A stretch of DNA of 49,473 bases from an uncultured Acidobacteriota bacterium (GTDB lineage Bacteria; Acidobacteriota; Polarisedimenticolia; J045): assembly GCA_964586535.1 (NCBI GenBank), contig CAZPJJ010000002.1:1-49473 (forward strand). The letters are read 5' to 3'. Numbering within the stretch: the first letter of the stretch is position 1; the number at the start of each line of letters is the position of its first letter. Below the pieces are notes generated by a model that saw nothing but the letters and a program-made list of their open reading frames with translations, ran no database searches and was not told the DNA's origin. The position numbers and the translations under genes were made by a program. Below are positions 6,989 to 14,195 of the stretch, one piece after another.

Positions 6989-7807
6989 TCAGCGGTGGCG
7001 GCGGTACTCGCGCCACGACGCGCTCTCGCGCAGGTCGCCCTCGTCGAGGAGCGAGAAGCGGGGATCTCCCGCGACGCGATCGACGAGCGGGAGCGCGGGT
7101 ATCACTGCCTGGCCGGCACGGTAGACGGTGGCGCGGTGAACCGCCGCGCGTCCGGCGAGCGTGCGAACGGGCTCGCCACCGTGCTGTCGCGCTGCGCGCA
7201 GGAGCAGCGAGCGCGCTCGGCCGCGCCGCGTGATCTCGGCAACCGTAACGCGCGCGAGGGCGCTGACGGCGGCGCGGAGAGCATCCCAGGATCGCGGATG
7301 CGGCGGAGCAGCGGGTGCGGCGCCGGGGAGAGCGGTGCCTTCAGGTGCGACGGAAGGGTCGGCCGAAACCCACGCATGGAAGCGGGCGGGATCGCGCGCG
7401 GCGGCTACCGGGGACTCGATCGCGAGGCCGCAGAGATCGCGGTGCGTCGAGAGCGGCCAGGCGAGGGGATCGTCGACGAGGCCCTTGCGCACGGGATTGA
7501 GATGGACGTAGCGCATGCTGCGCCTGACGTGCTCCTCGCCACGAACGGGCGTGGCCTCGATCCCCTCGCTCCAGACGGATCCCCGCTCGCCGCGCCTCGC
7601 GTTTCGTGCCTGCGCGTAGGCGACGAGGGCACGTACGAGACGCGCGCGCGCGGCCTCGTCGGGAACGAGCGCGTGCACGTGGTCTGGCATGAGCGCGAGC
7701 GCACGCAGCGGGACGCGGCCGATGATCGTTCGCCACGCGAGGAGTCCCTCGGCCCATGTCCGAAAGACGAGCGTGCGCGGTCGAGCGTGAGCGACGACGT
7801 GGAGCAT
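6989..7807 (-). CDS. REP-associated tyrosine transposase (RAYT)-like HUH/Y1 protein (IS200-like Y1_Tnp fold) with an extra C-terminal helix-turn-helix-like region
   Basis: The HUH motif is LMPDHVHALV and the catalytic Tyr motif is MRYVHLNPVRKGLVDDPLAWPLSTH. The N-terminus MLHVVAHARPRTLVF matches the YHV..RG strand of this family. The Met start at 7807 was chosen because the upstream 124 codons are low-complexity. Confidence 0.75.
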   Translation of the reverse strand: MLHVVAHARPRTLVFRTWAEGLLAWRTIIGRVPLRALALMPDHVHALVPDEAARARLVRALVAYAQARNARRGERGSVWSEGIEATPVRGEEHVRRSMRYVHLNPVRKGLVDDPLAWPLSTHRDLCGLAIESPVAAARDPARFHAWVSADPSVAPEGTALPGAAPAAPPHPRSWDALRAAVSALARVTVAEITRRGRARSLLLRAARQHGGEPVRTLAGRAAVHRATVYRAGQAVIPALPLVDRVAGDPRFSLLDEGDLRESASWREYRRHR

Positions 7808-8176
7808 GAGCGGAGCGTAGCGAGGACTGCTTCCGCGGCGGGGCGTGCCGCAGATGCGTCCTCCACTCTGTGGGATGCCGATCGTCGAACCGTCGTCGCG
7901 AGTCCGTTGCCGCGTCTGACGGCGCGAGCAGCAGAGACCGCTTTGCGTGGGGAGCGGGGCCAGGGCGAGTGGGAGGAGTTGACAGTGTGAACGCCGGAAA
8001 GAGTGCGCGGGGAACGAGGGTGCTGGGGTCACGAGGGTGGGGAGGACCGCGATGGTGCGGGGGCAGTCAATAGCCCGACACACGCCAAGAGTGCGGGCGA
8101 CCCAGCAGCATGGGCGAATGCAGTTGCGCAGCACACTGGTTGCGATCGCGCTGATCTGGCGGCGGCAGGCGCGTCC

Positions 8177-8382
8177 CAACGCGACAAAGCGGGGAGCAGG
8201 TCGGCCTCAACGCGACACCGTGTCGCATTCAACTGCACCTGCGGACCGCAGATGCGGTCGAACGCTACAGATCCAGCCCCGTCGCGAGTTCCCGGACTGG
8301 AAATGTCGCGTTGAGTCCAGCCTGCTCGACGCCGAGTCGCAATCGCGAGGACCTGCTACCAGCGGAGGAGCTTCAACGCGAC
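8177..8382. repeat. Four copies of the 9-mer CAACGCGAC (8177, 8208 and 8374 direct; 8305-8313 inverted), including a perfect hairpin GCGACAC-C-GTGTCGC (8212-8226) flanked by TCAAC on both sides
   Basis: Read directly from the sequence. The copies lie in a roughly 1 kb stretch with no convincing coding frame and locally lower GC. Confidence 0.6.
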
Positions 8383-8400
8383 CGCGTCGGTGACGCTGCG

Positions 8401-8537
8401 CGGAAGATTGTGGTTTGCTGATCGGAAGATTGTGGTCGGTGGACCGCTAAGCCGCCGTGCGCGCTGCGCAGGGGCACCGGTAAGCCGCCGTGCGAGCTGC
8501 GCGGGTGGATCGACAAACCGACGGGCGCGCTGCGCTC
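8401..8537. repeat. Short tandem repeats: 2 x CGGAAGATTGTGGT (22-bp period), then 3 x a roughly 33-bp unit (TAAGCCGCCGTGCG-GCTGCGC)
   Basis: The 14-mer occurs at 8401-8414 and 8423-8436. The 23-nt cores at 8448-8470 and 8481-8503 are near identical, and a degenerate third copy lies at 8515-8537. Confidence 0.7.
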
Positions 8538-8783
8538 TCGGATCTGAGTCCGTGCTGGATTGGAGGACCGGCGTCCGCGCGGATCGCCGGACCAATGGCC
8601 GCTGTGACTCCCCGTAGCCTTCGCCACCCGTCGTCGCGCTCGTTCTCGCGTTGGTGGTCGCGAGTGACCGCGCTTCTCATCCCTTGAGCGATGAAGTGAC
8701 TCGACGTCGTTCCCGGTCATCCCCGCACGCGAATGTCGTTTCCCGCCCCTTGCGATTCGGTCTGTCCGTGCGCGCACCGCATC

Positions 8784-8821
8784 AGAGAAAGGGCCGGCCA
8801 CCCTCGCGGGCAGCCGGCCCC
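8784..8821 (-). terminator. Probable rho-independent terminator after the Cys-rich peptide gene
   Basis: The stem GGGCCGGC/GCCGGCCC (8791-8798 and 8813-8820) has a 14-nt loop and is followed on the minus strand by TTTCTCT. It lies 30 nt downstream of the stop at 8851. Confidence 0.5.
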
Positions 8822-8850: not shown

Positions 8851-9024
8851 TCAGCAGTTGCAATTCGCGCCGCACTCGCAGCAGCTGCACGTCTCGCAGG
8901 AACACTCGACGCACGTGCAGCAACCGCAGGTGGCCGACTCGTTCTGCACGGTGTTGGCGACGACGAACGCACCGCCCGAGAGCACGGCGAGAGCCGCGAG
9001 GGCGATCATCAGCTTCTTCTTCAT
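8851..9024 (-). CDS. 57-aa exported or membrane-anchored peptide with an extremely Cys-rich tail
   Basis: The sequence is MKKKLMIALAALAVLSGGAFVVANTVQNESATCGCCTCVECSCETCSCCECGANCNC. The SD GAGGAG lies 7 nt upstream of the ATG. Twelve of the last 25 residues are Cys, and a terminator follows. Confidence 0.65.
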   Translation of the reverse strand: MKKKLMIALAALAVLSGGAFVVANTVQNESATCGCCTCVECSCETCSCCECGANCNC

Positions 9025-9090
9025 GGGAATACTCCTCGGATCCAGTTGATCCAAACCAACGTGTTCAGGACTCACGACGACGGGGTTCGA

Positions 9091-9501
9091 TCAGCGGGTC
9101 TTCGGAGGGGGCACATCGGGACGATCGGAGTGCGACGGGAGTTGAGCGGCCGAGACACGCTCGATCTCGACGCTCTCGCGAGCCTCGGTGACTGCAGGCG
9201 CCCGAAGCACTGCGACCGCGGTGCTGGGACAGCAGCGGAGGCACTGCATCGGCTGGCAGGGGCTTTCATCCGTCTCGCCGTCGTCGGCCGGCTGCGGCGC
9301 CGGGCACGAGGAGCAGCGAGACATCGACACGCGCACATCGGCGGGCTCGGCGGGATGCTTGGTATCGGGGTGCGAGTCGTCGCAGCAGCACGGCCCGGCG
9401 TGACCCTGGGCCTCGCCCGTGATCATCGGGACGGCTGCCAGCGGCTGACCGACGAGGGCCATCACGACAAGGAGGCAGACGATGCGCGCGGTGATTCGCA
9501 T
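9091..9501 (-). CDS. Exported Cys/His-rich protein, uncharacterised
   Basis: The sequence begins MRITARIVCLLVVMALVGQPLAAV (signal-like), followed by HAGPCCCDDSHPDTKHP, RCSSCP and CQPMQCLRCCP. Third-position GC bias is strong. An alternative TTG start lies at 9540. The gene is co-directional with the peptide gene and 66 nt upstream of it. Confidence 0.6.
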   Translation of the reverse strand: MRITARIVCLLVVMALVGQPLAAVPMITGEAQGHAGPCCCDDSHPDTKHPAEPADVRVSMSRCSSCPAPQPADDGETDESPCQPMQCLRCCPSTAVAVLRAPAVTEARESVEIERVSAAQLPSHSDRPDVPPPKTR

Positions 9502-9842
9502 GGCGACGCGGATTATCGAGCGAGTCACTCGAGCTATCAAGGGAGTTTCCAGAGATTGAGGATCGGCGCGCCGACGGGCGGGAGGAGAGGTCCACGCGCA
9601 TGTCCACCCACGGGAAGGTGCTCAGAAGCTCGCCAATGTTCGTACTTGACCGTAAGACCTGCTCGCGGTGCTCCCTCGCCTCGTAGGCTGGTCCGCGCGG
9701 AACCTCCGAGTCCGCCTTTCCTTCATTGCATCGAAGCACCCGCCCGGCCGAGGATCTTCCGACACCCAGCCGGAGCCGCGCCGCCGCTCCGCCGCCGCGG
9801 CCTGCCGCCGGCCACCGCGGCCCACCGTCCCAGGAGGTCTCC

Positions 9843-11538: not shown

Positions 11539-11991
11539 TCAGGCGGGCTTCTCCGCGGCGCGCTTGATGTCGTCGAGATCCTTCGCGCAGGTCGAGAGCA
11601 AGGACTTCTTGATCATCGGCGTCATGAGCCAGCCCATGATTCGCGCGGCGAAGGTGAGGGGAGTGGCCTGAAAGTCCATCGTCACACGCGTGCCGGTTGC
11701 TATTCCCGCGAAGGTGAAGCTGCTCTCGTAGCGTGTGCCGTGGCTCAGGGCGAGCAGTGCGACCCGCCGGGGCGCCACGATCTCGGTGACGGTTATCTCC
11801 TCGGTGGCTTCGCGGCCGAACATGACGCGCGTCTCGCGGAAACGCGTGCCGGCGGCGACGGGGCCCGGCGTGAGCATCTCGACGCGCACGATGCCCTCGA
11901 CGACGTTCGCGGCATTGGCGAAATCGGTCGCGAGCCGAAAGACCGCCTCGGGCGACGCGGCGATGTCGGCAGAGATCGTGGCGCGCATCAT
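11539..11991 (-). CDS. SRPBCC (START / polyketide-cyclase-like) family protein
   Basis: The 150-aa protein has the typical N-terminus (ISADIAASPEAVFRLATDFANAANVVEGIV) and the right size. Its start overlaps the upstream stop by 4 nt (ATGA). Confidence 0.8.
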   Translation of the reverse strand: MMRATISADIAASPEAVFRLATDFANAANVVEGIVRVEMLTPGPVAAGTRFRETRVMFGREATEEITVTEIVAPRRVALLALSHGTRYESSFTFAGIATGTRVTMDFQATPLTFAARIMGWLMTPMIKKSLLSTCAKDLDDIKRAAEKPA

Positions 11992-12644
11992 CTCACTCCG
12001 GGTGCGGACGCTCCGCGGCGCGTGAAGACGAACTCGACGACCTTGGCGTTGGTTTCGCCGATAGGGAGGTCGTGGAGTTCATAGATCATCGTGTCGGCGT
12101 TCGGGAATCTCCAGACGTACTTGACCATCTTGTCGTGCTCGCCCGTGAGGTACTCGTCGAGCGTACCGTAGCCGACGAGCGCGCCGGTCTTGGGGTCGAC
12201 GTCGCCCTCCCAGCGCAGCATCGCGGTATCCATCGACGAGACGGCGCTGGAGACGTACGACTGTTTGAAGTTGTCATACCCGAAGATCGCGAACCACTCG
12301 TTCGGCAAACCCATCATCGTTCCGGTACCGCGTGCCTGCAGCCAGCGGCCTTCCATGAGCCACGAGAAAGTCGCGCTTCCCTTCTCGGCCTTCGCGCCGG
12401 GCATCATCACGACGCGCATTTCGGTGTCCCATGTGCCGAGGAAGCGCTCGAGAAGCGCATGCTGAGCGCCGGGCGCGGTGAACTGCTTGGCCTTGGCCAT
12501 CATCTCGGCCATCTGCTTTTCGTCGATGGCCGGTGCGGGCGGTGCCGGTTTGGGGTCAGCGGCGTGCACGGGTGGCGTGGAGGCGGCGAGCGCGAGGGCT
12601 GCGGCGAGAAGGCTCGTGGCGGTGAACGCGGTTCGGAACGTCAT
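11988..12644 (-). CDS. Exported DUF1579-family protein
   Basis: The signal peptide is MTFRTAFTATSLLAAALALAASTPPVHA. The DUF1579-like core reads LLERFLGTWDTEMRVV...WLMEGRWLQ...FGYDNFKQSY. It forms the C-terminal part of the chimeric 654-aa track ORF. ATGA overlaps occur at both ends. Confidence 0.8.
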   Translation of the reverse strand: MTFRTAFTATSLLAAALALAASTPPVHAADPKPAPPAPAIDEKQMAEMMAKAKQFTAPGAQHALLERFLGTWDTEMRVVMMPGAKAEKGSATFSWLMEGRWLQARGTGTMMGLPNEWFAIFGYDNFKQSYVSSAVSSMDTAMLRWEGDVDPKTGALVGYGTLDEYLTGEHDKMVKYVWRFPNADTMIYELHDLPIGETNAKVVEFVFTRRGASAPGVR

Positions 12645-13792
12645 GGCGATTCTCCAGGCGGAGGCGAGTGAGCCTCGGATGGTGCGGCGTCCGCGCCGGC
12701 GCGTTCGGCGGCGAGACGACGGTAGATCTCGTAGCGAAGCAGGAGACAACCAGGGGGGCGCTCGAGAAGAGCACCGACTTCGGCGACGGCGGCCCCCGAA
12801 AACGGCGCAACGGGGACGAAAGCCGCGAAGAGGACCACGGCGACGAGTCCCGTCGTGACGAGCCGGGCGCGGGCGCGCTCCGGCCGCGCGCGCTCGAGAA
12901 GGCGCAAGCGCGCGAGAAGCTGCGAGCGCGGGCTGATGAAGCCGTGGACTCGAGGGCGTGGCTGCTCGACGAGGCGCAGAGCGACATCGAGGAGCGTGTC
13001 GCGATAGGCGCGGGCATCGCCGTCGAGGCGGCGAACGACCGCGCGGTCGCAGCATTGCTCGCGGAGCGCGGCGAGGCGGAATCCTGCGATCCAGACGAGC
13101 GGATGGAACCAGTACACGGCGGTGAGCGCACAGACGAGAGCGTCCCAGAGCGCATCGCGGTGTTTCACGTGGGTGAACTCGTGGAGCAGGACGTGATCGA
13201 GTTGCTCGGGTGAGTAGCGTGTCTCCACGTGGGCAGGAAGGAGCACGAGCGGCCGGAGGATCCCGACGACGCAGGGGCTTCGCACCGCCGGCGCGGAGAG
13301 GACCTGCGGCGTTCGCGCGAGCCCCGCGCGCCCGGCGGCGGCGTCGAAGCGCGCCTGCAAACCGGAAGGCCACGCAGCGCGAGCGCGGGCGCGCAGCGAG
13401 CGGGCGAGGGCAGCGTAATGGAAGACGCCGATCGCGACGAACGCCGCGGCGCCCGTCGCCCACACGAGAAACGCGGTCTCCGCGCCCGCGATCGCCGCGC
13501 TCTCGGCGTCGGCGCTCGCGAAGGCGACGGTGTCGATCGAGCGCGGCCAATAGGGGAGGGCGAGCGAGGCAGCCTGCCAGACGGAGAGCACTTCCGCGGG
13601 CACGATCAATCGCGCGAGAGCGACGACCCACAGCGCCGCACGCAATTCGGGCCAGGCGCGACGCGGGAGAACGGCGTCGATGGCCGCGGCGGCGAGCAGC
13701 GTGACCGTCGCTTGGAGCGCGAGCGGCGGTACGAACGCCCACCAAAACGCGGTTGCCTCGCGGAGGATCGCGGCATCCGAGAAGTCGGTCAT
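12641..13792 (-). CDS. BlaR1/MecR1-type M56 peptidase (membrane signal transducer)
   Basis: There are multiple N-terminal TM segments and the zinc motif LLHEFTHVKHRD. The gene pairs with a BlaI-type repressor through a 4-nt overlap. Confidence 0.85.
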   Translation of the reverse strand: MTDFSDAAILREATAFWWAFVPPLALQATVTLLAAAAIDAVLPRRAWPELRAALWVVALARLIVPAEVLSVWQAASLALPYWPRSIDTVAFASADAESAAIAGAETAFLVWATGAAAFVAIGVFHYAALARSLRARARAAWPSGLQARFDAAAGRAGLARTPQVLSAPAVRSPCVVGILRPLVLLPAHVETRYSPEQLDHVLLHEFTHVKHRDALWDALVCALTAVYWFHPLVWIAGFRLAALREQCCDRAVVRRLDGDARAYRDTLLDVALRLVEQPRPRVHGFISPRSQLLARLRLLERARPERARARLVTTGLVAVVLFAAFVPVAPFSGAAVAEVGALLERPPGCLLLRYEIYRRLAAERAGADAAPSEAHSPPPGESP

Positions 13793-14187
13793 CGGCGGCG
13801 ACCCTTCTTGGTGGGGCGGGGAGCGCTGTCGCGCTCGGCCTCGAGGAGCGCGCGCAGTTCGTCGCGATCCCTCGCGGTGAGCCGCTCGTCATCGACGATG
13901 TGGGAAATGAGCGCGCCGAAGGTGCCGCCGAAGGCTCGGCCCAGGAGGCCACGTACGGCTTGCCGTCGCGCGTCGGATCTTGAAATCAGCGGCGAGAAGA
14001 CGCCGGTGTTCCCGCGCCGCTCGACGGCGACCGCGCCCTTGTCGACGAGGCGCGTGAGCAAAGTCTTCGCCGTGGAATAGGCCCAGCCGGTCTGGTCGAC
14101 GACACGCTCGTGGACCTCGCGGACCGTCGCGGGCGCGCGTTCCCAGAGCGCGTGCATGACCTTCCACTCGGCATCGCTCAGTTCCAC
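13789..14187 (-). CDS. BlaI/MecI/CopY-family transcriptional repressor
   Basis: The sequence (V)ELSDAEWKVMHALWERAPATVREVHERV...WAYSTAKTLLTRLVDKGAV is the canonical winged-helix penicillinase-repressor pattern. The GTG start lies 6 nt after AGGAGA. Confidence 0.9.
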   Translation of the reverse strand: MELSDAEWKVMHALWERAPATVREVHERVVDQTGWAYSTAKTLLTRLVDKGAVAVERRGNTGVFSPLISRSDARRQAVRGLLGRAFGGTFGALISHIVDDERLTARDRDELRALLEAERDSAPRPTKKGRRR

Positions 14188-14195
14188 GGGGGTCT

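Follow-up and report, generated by a model that had tools for sequence, protein, structure and literature searches.

What might a bacterium do with a 57-aa peptide in which 12 of the last 25 residues are Cys, and what is the role of the Cys/His-rich protein encoded directly ahead of it? We address this question for a bicistronic operon on the minus strand of a 49,473-nt stretch of DNA from an uncultured Acidobacteriota bacterium (contig CAZPJJ010000002.1, assembly GCA_964586535.1), referred to below as the window. In the direction of transcription, the operon consists of a promoter, the gene of the Cys/His-rich protein (hereafter the partner), a 66-nt spacer, the peptide gene and a terminator; the whole locus of promoter, leader, spacer, effector and terminator takes up about 0.75 kb. 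Both open reading frames (ORFs) are real genes, and the operon is restricted to one lineage. As a tentative answer, which we consider quite possible yet short of probable, we propose that the partner is a leader of the CutF design, unrelated in sequence to DUF2946, that gates an exported metallothionein-like peptide, the two genes forming a self-contained metal-response unit. All of the evidence is computational and comes from three variants of one lineage, i.e., the window and two Logan metagenome contigs, L001 and L036. The sequence of L001 was recovered from several Logan runs (L001–L007, one and the same sequence) and is syntenic with the window; L036 is a 1.1-kb contig that carries a partner gene (72% identity) and a peptide gene at L036:750-923. 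Gene structures, promoter, Shine-Dalgarno (SD) sequence, terminator, conservation, motif positions, codon choice and the possible RNA pairing are read directly from these sequences.

Briefly, the proposed mechanism would work as follows, with export, pausing, metal binding, the identity of the metal and the direction of regulation all drawn by analogy. The first gene product (136 aa) would act in cis as a CutF-type leader and would be exported co-translationally through Sec, so that its Cys/His clusters could reach the periplasmic side while the ribosome decodes Pro-Pro-Pro (PPP) three codons before the stop. Metal bound to the nascent leader would lengthen the pause on PPP, and a ribosome sitting on the PPP codons would block their anti-SD pairing with GAGGAG, which would allow the second gene to be translated. 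The second gene product (57 aa) would be the effector: its N-terminal signal or anchor would take it across the inner membrane, and its 25-residue tail with 12 Cys could bind soft metals (Cu(I), possibly Cd, Zn, Hg and Ag) as a thiolate cluster, making it a periplasmic buffer.

The peptide, of full sequence MKKKLMIALAALAVLSGGAFVVANTVQNESATCGCCTCVECSCETCSCCECGANCNC, is encoded and organized as follows.

8851 to 9024, minus strand: peptide gene (coding 8854-9024 plus stop), 57 aa, with a G+C content at third codon positions of 0.91
8956 to 9024, minus strand: predicted signal or membrane anchor of the peptide, MKKK followed by LMIALAALAVLSGGAFVVA, as read from the sequence
8854 to 8928, minus strand: metallothionein-like tail CGCCTCVECSCETCSCCECGANCNC, residues 33-57, with 12 Cys and 4 Glu and without His, Met or aromatic residues

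The N-terminal segment is laid out like a Sec signal, with n, h and c regions (MKKK, LMIALAALAVL and SGGA) and candidate signal-peptidase sites after SGGA19 or VVA23; if the peptide stays uncleaved, the positive-inside rule would place the tail outside. The N-terminal 23 residues are identical in all three variants, and so are the first 75 nt of the ORF. The tail follows the pattern C-x-CC-x-C-xx-C-x-C-xx-C-x-CC-x-C-xxx-C-x-C, and every one of its 12 Cys is invariant in the three variants; the tail changes (S47N, A53T, N54K and N56D) are all at non-Cys positions. The original prediction, made on the window alone, had described a small gene with a good SD sequence, a Lys-rich hydrophobic N terminus, 12 Cys in the last 25 residues and a terminator hairpin behind it, all of which we find, the SD being GAGGAG, and it had named loss of the Cys pattern in homologues as a refuting check; all Cys are kept in both of the other variants. 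Since the Cys residues appear too dense for an ordered disulfide fold, a thiolate–metal cluster is the most economical reading. Its composition, its CxC/CC/CxxC pattern, its invariant Cys and the predicted signal or anchor at its N terminus make an exported or membrane-tethered metallothionein-like peptide the best interpretation of the small gene.

We then have to ask whether such a peptide resembles the metal binders already described. It shares with metallothioneins (SmtA/BmtA, MymT and the eukaryotic proteins) a high Cys content (48% in the tail, the operational threshold being about 15-30%), the CxC, CC and CxxC spacings, the lack of aromatic residues and the small size; it differs from them in having no sequence homology and in carrying an N-terminal Sec-type signal or anchor. 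To our knowledge, the known bacterial metallothioneins are cytoplasmic. By metallothionein analogy, 12 Cys could hold about four divalent ions or six to eight Cu(I). Other exported proteins have been proposed to soak up Cu or Ag outside of the cytoplasm, namely PcoE/SilE, which rely on Met and His, and Csp1 of methanotrophs, a folded four-helix bundle that is exported by Tat and binds through Cys thiolates. None of these is a 25-residue poly-Cys tail like that of the peptide. In a full-text literature search, no paper turned up in which a bacterial metallothionein was termed periplasmic, exported, secreted or extracytoplasmic; the original prediction had remarked that exported metallothionein-like peptides are not a well-described bacterial class. 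The peptide has no match among Protein Data Bank (PDB) chains and none among Pfam and NCBIfam families; an NCBIfam hit to lactococcin-972 (E 0.15) covers a signal peptide only and was rejected.

The same Cys-rich tail could also be read without metal, as a disulfide- or thiol-rich secreted molecule (an oxidant or electrophile scavenger, an antimicrobial or signaling molecule, or a membrane redox element) with the partner as its processing or immunity factor. The oxidizing compartment that the peptide would meet after export favors disulfides, there is no metal gene nearby, and the pair borders DNA that resembles a mobile element and holds repeats and a RAYT-like transposase gene. However, so dense a tail (12 Cys in 25 residues, arranged as CC doublets and at CxC spacing) is what thiolate clusters typically show, there is no transporter or immunity gene of the bacteriocin type, and the partner, in its resemblance to leaders, points to sensing of a metal type; we consider this alternative distinctly unlikely.

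Within the genome of the organism, there are 10 Cys-dense stretches (≥8 Cys in 25 aa), and the peptide is the only plausible ORF of this kind; of the other nine, eight are off-frame, Arg-rich noise and the last is part of a 549-aa ORF. This last one, an Asp- and Cys-rich segment on contig C124 (CRCLDDPDCACRCDCDADPDPDCFCPG), is the sole other Cys-dense stretch that is not noise.

What, then, is the partner? It begins MRITARIVCLLVVMALVGQPLAAV, with a longer N-terminal read of MRITARIVCLLVVMALVGQPLAAVPMITGEAQGHAGPCCC, followed by RCSSCP, CQPMQCLRCCP and the end DRPDVPPPKTR, and has no match among Pfam and NCBIfam families. Its features are listed below.

9091 to 9501, minus strand: partner or leader gene (coding 9094-9501 plus stop), 136 aa, no family match
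9430 to 9501, minus strand: predicted Sec/SRP-type signal peptide of the partner, residues 1-24 (MRITAR, a very hydrophobic core, PLAA)
9382 to 9408, minus strand: metal-type motif HGHAGPCCC, residues 32-40, of which GHAGPCCC (33-40) is invariant in the three variants
9304 to 9315, minus strand: CxxC motif C63-S-S-C66, within the invariant SRCSSCPAP
9229 to 9258, minus strand: Cys cluster C82-QPMQ-C87-LR-C90-C91, within 16 invariant residues, DESPCQPMQCLRCCPS
9103 to 9111, minus strand: PPP motif P131-P133 (codons CCC CCU CCG), three residues ahead of the stop; candidate for ribosome pausing and, as CCUCC, for an anti-SD

These agree with what the original prediction had reported for the upstream gene, i.e., a signal peptide followed by HGHAGPCCC, RCSSCP and CQPMQCLRCCP; please note that residue 32 is variable (Q in the window and L001, H in L036). 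The signal peptide call is heuristic, resting on the Kyte-Doolittle hydropathy of an 11-residue window (best value 3.54) and on the AlphaFold 2 model, in which residues 3-18 form a helix, and its cleavage site is a predicted one. The partner is a mosaic in its evolution: the signal peptide, the Cys motifs and the C terminus are invariant, and the linker at residues 38-61 diverges freely (nonsynonymous divergence, dN, 0.72). Against L036, the whole gene has a dN of 0.18 and a synonymous divergence (dS) of 0.36. All nine Cys of the mature partner are invariant in the three variants, which together with the peptide makes 21 Cys; around the C82–C91 cluster, about 50 nt of DNA are without any substitution; and the final 11 residues, DRPDVPPPKTR, are invariant although the partner overall is 72% identical to that of L036. 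The distance from the C82–C91 cluster to PPP is 39-48 residues. Structure prediction gave no confident fold (mean predicted local distance difference test score 44.7), which would suit a sensor that acts transiently as a nascent chain more than it would suit a folded chaperone.

The comparison that carries our proposal is with CutF, encoded in the cutFOG operon of Rhodobacter capsulatus; this is a small protein, exported through Sec, that contains CxxxC and has the C terminus PEPEGPPPRL (PMC9973294; bioRxiv 10.1101/2025.02.05.636593). In the CutF model, Cu binding to the nascent, partly exported chain lengthens a pause at PPP, and this pause melts a stem-loop by which the next gene's SD is concealed (PMC9973294; bioRxiv 10.1101/2025.02.05.636593). 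The Cys motif and PPP of CutF are 45 residues apart, and the 39-48 residues seen in the partner correspond in that model to the ribosomal tunnel plus the Sec channel (PMC9973294). Ozturk et al. 2023 (PMC9973294) put forward a set of rules for CutF-like proteins and found putative Cys/His metal sites in every cluster of them. The partner agrees with all of the rule-based points: its length is 136 aa (<150), a signal is predicted, Cys/His motifs are present, PPP lies in the last 15 residues, and the next gene is 66 nt away. Both proteins are small (136 aa for the partner, 118 aa for CutF) and have a Sec-type export signal, a predicted one in the partner, and a Cys motif; the partner ends RPDVPPPKTR and CutF ends PEPEGPPPRL, in either case with PPP and then a basic residue, 2-3 residues before the stop (K and R flank the PPP of the partner, and flanking basic residues have been noted for CutF as well); and the two share a distance of about 45 residues from Cys motif to PPP and a short spacer. 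The downstream gene of the partner would logically be metal-induced, too, and its SD might be masked by upstream RNA. There are differences, too. The partner has three Cys/His clusters, and CutF a single CxxxC; the masking element here would be the PPP codons themselves, with weak predicted stability, in place of the strong intergenic stem-loop of CutF; the downstream gene is a 57-aa Cys-rich peptide, and the genes behind CutF-like leaders are multicopper oxidases, RND efflux components, TonB-dependent transporters and PCuAC chaperones (PMC9973294); and the lineage is outside of Pseudomonadota and Bacteroidota, with no detectable sequence homology. Copper is the most likely metal, with Cu(I) as our first guess, because CutF-like leaders with Cys motifs are found mostly ahead of copper genes (PMC9973294).

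A second leader of this type is CruR (Bp2923) of Bordetella pertussis, a DUF2946 (PF11162) protein with a CXXC motif, a RAPP motif three residues from its end and 45 residues between the two; it represses an uptake gene via Rho termination across a 162-nt spacer (PMC9426467). Again, the partner is comparable as a putative exported leader of the upstream-ORF type with a CxxC motif, a spacing of about 45 residues and a motif three residues before the end; set against the motif definition of the CruR family, this last position is the one feature in common. It differs in having VPPP in place of RAPP, in the distance of C87xxC90 from V130 (39 residues, vs 45 ± 2 in CruR), in lacking a PF11162 match, and in the expected output, which here would be an induced detoxifying effector rather than a repressed uptake gene. 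A true DUF2946-type leader does occur in the same genome, on contig C535 (47-415, plus strand): it is 123 aa long, contains ARCWLC, ends WSPRGPPSA and matches PF11162 at E 0.0028, and a relative with 90% identity is annotated as PF11162. Its C73 lies 44 residues before R118, which fits the conserved spacing of the family, and the adjacent ORF, from about position 457, appears by sequence reading alone to be a TonB-dependent receptor, i.e., the CruR–BfrG arrangement. With a DUF2946 leader ahead of a receptor-like gene, the lineage itself thus uses leaders of this kind.

The features of the partner have to be weighed against a simpler explanation, in which both products are stable exported partners, a metallothionein-like buffer and a Cys/His-rich metallochaperone or redox partner (one that might, for example, keep the peptide thiols reduced or load metal), with no coupling beyond their expression from one operon. 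Export signals and invariant Cys clusters on both proteins speak for it, as do the three Cys/His motifs (nine Cys) of the partner, where CruR and CutF make do with a single CxxC or CxxxC, and the weakness of the predicted SD-masking structure. It leaves unexplained, however, the invariant DRPDVPPPKTR, its place three residues from the stop and the rare-codon anti-SD; furthermore, the partner is without a confident fold and the sequence between its motifs evolves freely. We therefore treat the chaperone explanation as unlikely, and read the partner as a leader rather than as a metallochaperone because of its agreement with the CutF-like rules, the VPPPKTR end, the anti-SD in the PPP codons and the lack of a confident fold. 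The original prediction of a metal-buffering pair thus divides: the metallothionein-like exported peptide stands on its composition, motifs, invariant Cys and signal, and the partner metallochaperone gives way to a CutF-like leader as the likelier assignment.

Can the PPP codons act as the switch? The results point in both directions. The relevant RNA elements lie between the two genes.

9025 to 9090, minus strand: intergenic spacer of 66 nt, with a small conserved hairpin (UUGGAUC-AACUG-GAUCCGA) abutting the SD GAGGAG
9032 to 9037, minus strand: peptide SD GAGGAG, 7 nt before the ATG

PPP is encoded by CCC-CCU-CCG in both the window and L001 and by CCU-CCU-CCG in L036, which in all cases gives CCUCC, complementary to the peptide SD. 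CCU accounts for 7% of the Pro codons genome-wide, yet it is fixed at P132 in the three variants and is found also at P131 in L036 (a synonymous change of CCC to CCU); the only CCU codons in the partner gene of L036 are these two. When all 64 possible PPP codon sets were compared for pairing with the SD region, the set of L036 was the best (usage-weighted p 0.002) and that of the window and L001 ranked in the top 4%. Partition function calculations gave a probability of 0.5-0.66 for SD–PPP codon pairing in L001 and L036, and masking a ribosome footprint on PPP raised the unpaired probability of the SD from 0.25 to 0.35, from 0.31 to 0.45 and from 0.08 to 0.41 in the three variants. The spacer is 66 nt in all of them, and the substitutions within it fall either in loops or change G-U to G-C. 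No Rfam match was found.

The operon is further delimited by expression signals on both sides.

9512 to 9540, minus strand: sigma-70-like promoter, with -35 TTGATA (9535-9540), a 17-nt spacer and -10 GATAAT (9512-9517)
8783 to 8821, minus strand: intrinsic terminator (hairpin 8790-8821), a 14-bp stem GGGGCCGGCUGCCC/GGGUGGCCGGCCCU with loop GCGA, then UUUCUCU

The promoter has 10 of 12 consensus matches, was the one site in the scan (vs 0.0 in shuffles), and both of its hexamers are identical in L001 and L036. The -10 element ends 10 nt from the partner ATG and no SD precedes this ATG, so the partner mRNA is predicted to be leaderless or near-leaderless, and probably is. The most likely start of the partner is the ATG at 9501. 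A TTG at 9540 was considered as an alternative start and rejected, because translation from it would run through the conserved promoter and the extension is not kept in frame in L036. At the other end, the G+C-rich terminator hairpin follows 30 nt past the peptide stop, has a local folding energy of -44.3 kcal/mol (z -2.9) and is kept in L001 and L036; a strict terminator scan did not pick it up, because its U-run is interrupted. By codon position, the peptide gene has G+C contents of 0.46/0.56/0.91 and the partner gene of 0.71/0.57/0.82, similar to the 0.74/0.53/0.87 of the neighboring aidB-like gene.

How widely is the pair distributed? A word-indexed search of 5.8e9 proteins returned one cluster near-identical to the peptide and one partner of 72% identity, and nothing else; both of the other variants retain the gene pair, the 66-nt spacing and every Cys. 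Searches with the peptide in 23 genomes of the order and with the partner in 119 genomes of the class gave noise only (signal peptide matches and off-frame Arg-rich ORFs), and two JGI metagenome scans and one GTDB genome scan contained no relatives. A hidden Markov model (HMM) profile of the partner, run against 1.84e9 representatives, matched two giant repeat proteins in which no Cys aligned, and these matches are spurious. In the genome of the organism, no real homologue of peptide or partner was found outside the locus; a weak match on contig C69 (E 4e-4) was rejected, being off-frame inside a real gene on the opposite strand. The gene pair is therefore an orphan of one narrow lineage.

Such a distribution brings up the possibility that both genes are young orphans confined to one genus-level lineage, with weak expression or none and without a selected function. 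The absence of homologues beyond one narrow lineage is what this explanation would expect, and the peptide dN/dS is near 1, on very few changes. It is nevertheless very unlikely in our view, as promoter, SD and terminator are all conserved, the codon-position bias in G+C content is strong, and 21 of 21 Cys are invariant while the linkers of the partner diverge freely. There is also an asymmetry between the two genes: between the window and L036, 2 of 50 codons in the peptide are synonymously different, vs 22 of 95 in the partner (Fisher p 0.002), and the peptide dS of 0.056 is about six times lower than the partner dS of 0.36. This could stem from lineages having recently exchanged this segment, from strong selection on codons or from a role at the RNA level; the peptide ORF has no unusually stable RNA fold and no Rfam match.

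The original prediction had offered a second option, namely that the peptide is a precursor of a RiPP, a peptide made by the ribosome and then altered by post-translational modification. In this case, it would be bufferin-like or ranthipeptide/SCIFF-like, with a maturase encoded elsewhere and with its Cys modified before Sec export. Core peptides that are Cys-rich and carry a Sec signal do exist: the bufferins of Caulobacter vibrioides (BufA1/DUF2282 and BufA2) depend on an MNIO (DUF692; BufB) and a DUF2063 protein (BufC) from their own operon for the conversion of their Cys to thiooxazoles (PMC11626156). Like the peptide, they are small Sec-exported Cys peptides, and they chelate periplasmic copper protectively (PMC11626156); the peptide differs in having neither an MNIO nor a DUF2063 gene beside it and no family match. 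As had been noted before, there is no adjacent maturase: the neighbors are an AidB-type gene, repeats, a RAYT-like transposase and a BlaI-BlaR1-DUF1579-SRPBCC operon, no peptide maturase is encoded anywhere in the 49-kb window, and in the three variants no gene for a maturase, a RiPP recognition element protein, a protease or a transporter stands next to the pair. Nor was an MNIO (PF05114) found in the genome, which is 90.5% complete, a Caulobacter control being positive, and the peptide matches no bufferin or SCIFF precursor family. The genome does encode radical-SAM/SPASM proteins of unassigned role, two in all, on contigs C211 and C540, but they fall under every family cut-off and no Cys-rich ORF was found on those contigs. 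We consequently hold the RiPP explanation to be highly improbable.

The wider surroundings can be described briefly. The upstream and divergent neighbor is an AidB-type acyl-CoA dehydrogenase gene, whose relatives occur in Acidobacteriota, Chloroflexota, Actinomycetota and Myxococcota with identities of ≤66%. On the downstream side there is about 1 kb of repeat-rich non-coding DNA and then the RAYT-like Y1 transposase (6989-8179, minus strand). Past the terminator, at 8395-8535, there are two repeats, one of 22 nt (1.9 copies) and a tandem one of 33 nt (2.8 copies), and five independent metagenome contigs from the sister strain (L001-L003, L005 and L006) all stop exactly 334 bp past the peptide gene, a shared end that suggests an assembly-breaking repeat. 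One tight operon (11539-14190, minus strand) encodes a repressor of the BlaI type, a sensor-protease (BlaR1/M56) and two further proteins, DUF1579 and SRPBCC; it adjoins the aidB-type gene in the sister strain L001 as well. The remaining genes of the window include an ECF sigma/CHAT operon, peptidases, kinases and an amidase.

It is not our intention to make the leader proposal stronger than it is, and a number of results weigh against it. On the side of the partner, CutF-like proteins were originally recruited by jackhmmer from CutF/DUF2946 seeds, and the partner has no PF11162 match at E up to 1; an hhalign comparison with the DUF2946 family of the same genome aligned the signal peptide only. 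On the side of the RNA, the SD of the window itself pairs by partition function chiefly with two small local hairpins and not with PPP, the predicted gain in SD accessibility upon stalling is modest, and the folding energies are not better than those of shuffles (spacer z 0 to +1.9). For the peptide, there is no match to the Pfam or NCBIfam metallothionein families at E up to 1 nor to metallothioneins in the PDB at E up to 10; its dN/dS is about 0.7-1.1 on 4-7 differing codons per pair, at which purifying selection is not demonstrated statistically, the ratio being uninformative because the synonymous divergence is so low; and in an oxidizing periplasm, free thiols would tend to form disulfides. 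The 49-kb window contains no gene for resistance to copper or to any other metal. Finally, two of the three variants are nearly identical, leaving few independent events behind the arguments from conservation and codon choice.

What would the locus mean for the biology of these bacteria? The design proposed here, that of CutF, is already known; the type of effector is without a description in the literature searched. The known periplasmic defenses against soft metals are efflux pumps, multicopper oxidases, Met/His-rich sponges and, as a recent addition, the enzyme-modified bufferins, and an unmodified exported poly-Cys peptide is not among them. In its most specific form, our proposal is that of a natural Sec-exported bacterial metallothionein gated by a CutF-design leader unrelated to DUF2946, in which the pause codons are themselves the anti-SD, i.e., pausing and unmasking would be one physical event; in this form we regard it as doubtful, though possible. 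With three variants, all from a single lineage, the family is tiny and carries little ecological weight. The compactness of the locus suits a test of the CutF model in which the Pro residues and the Pro codons could be separated in their roles. If the proposal is true, translational metal sensing by a nascent chain would reach past DUF2946, past Proteobacteria and past Bacteroidota.

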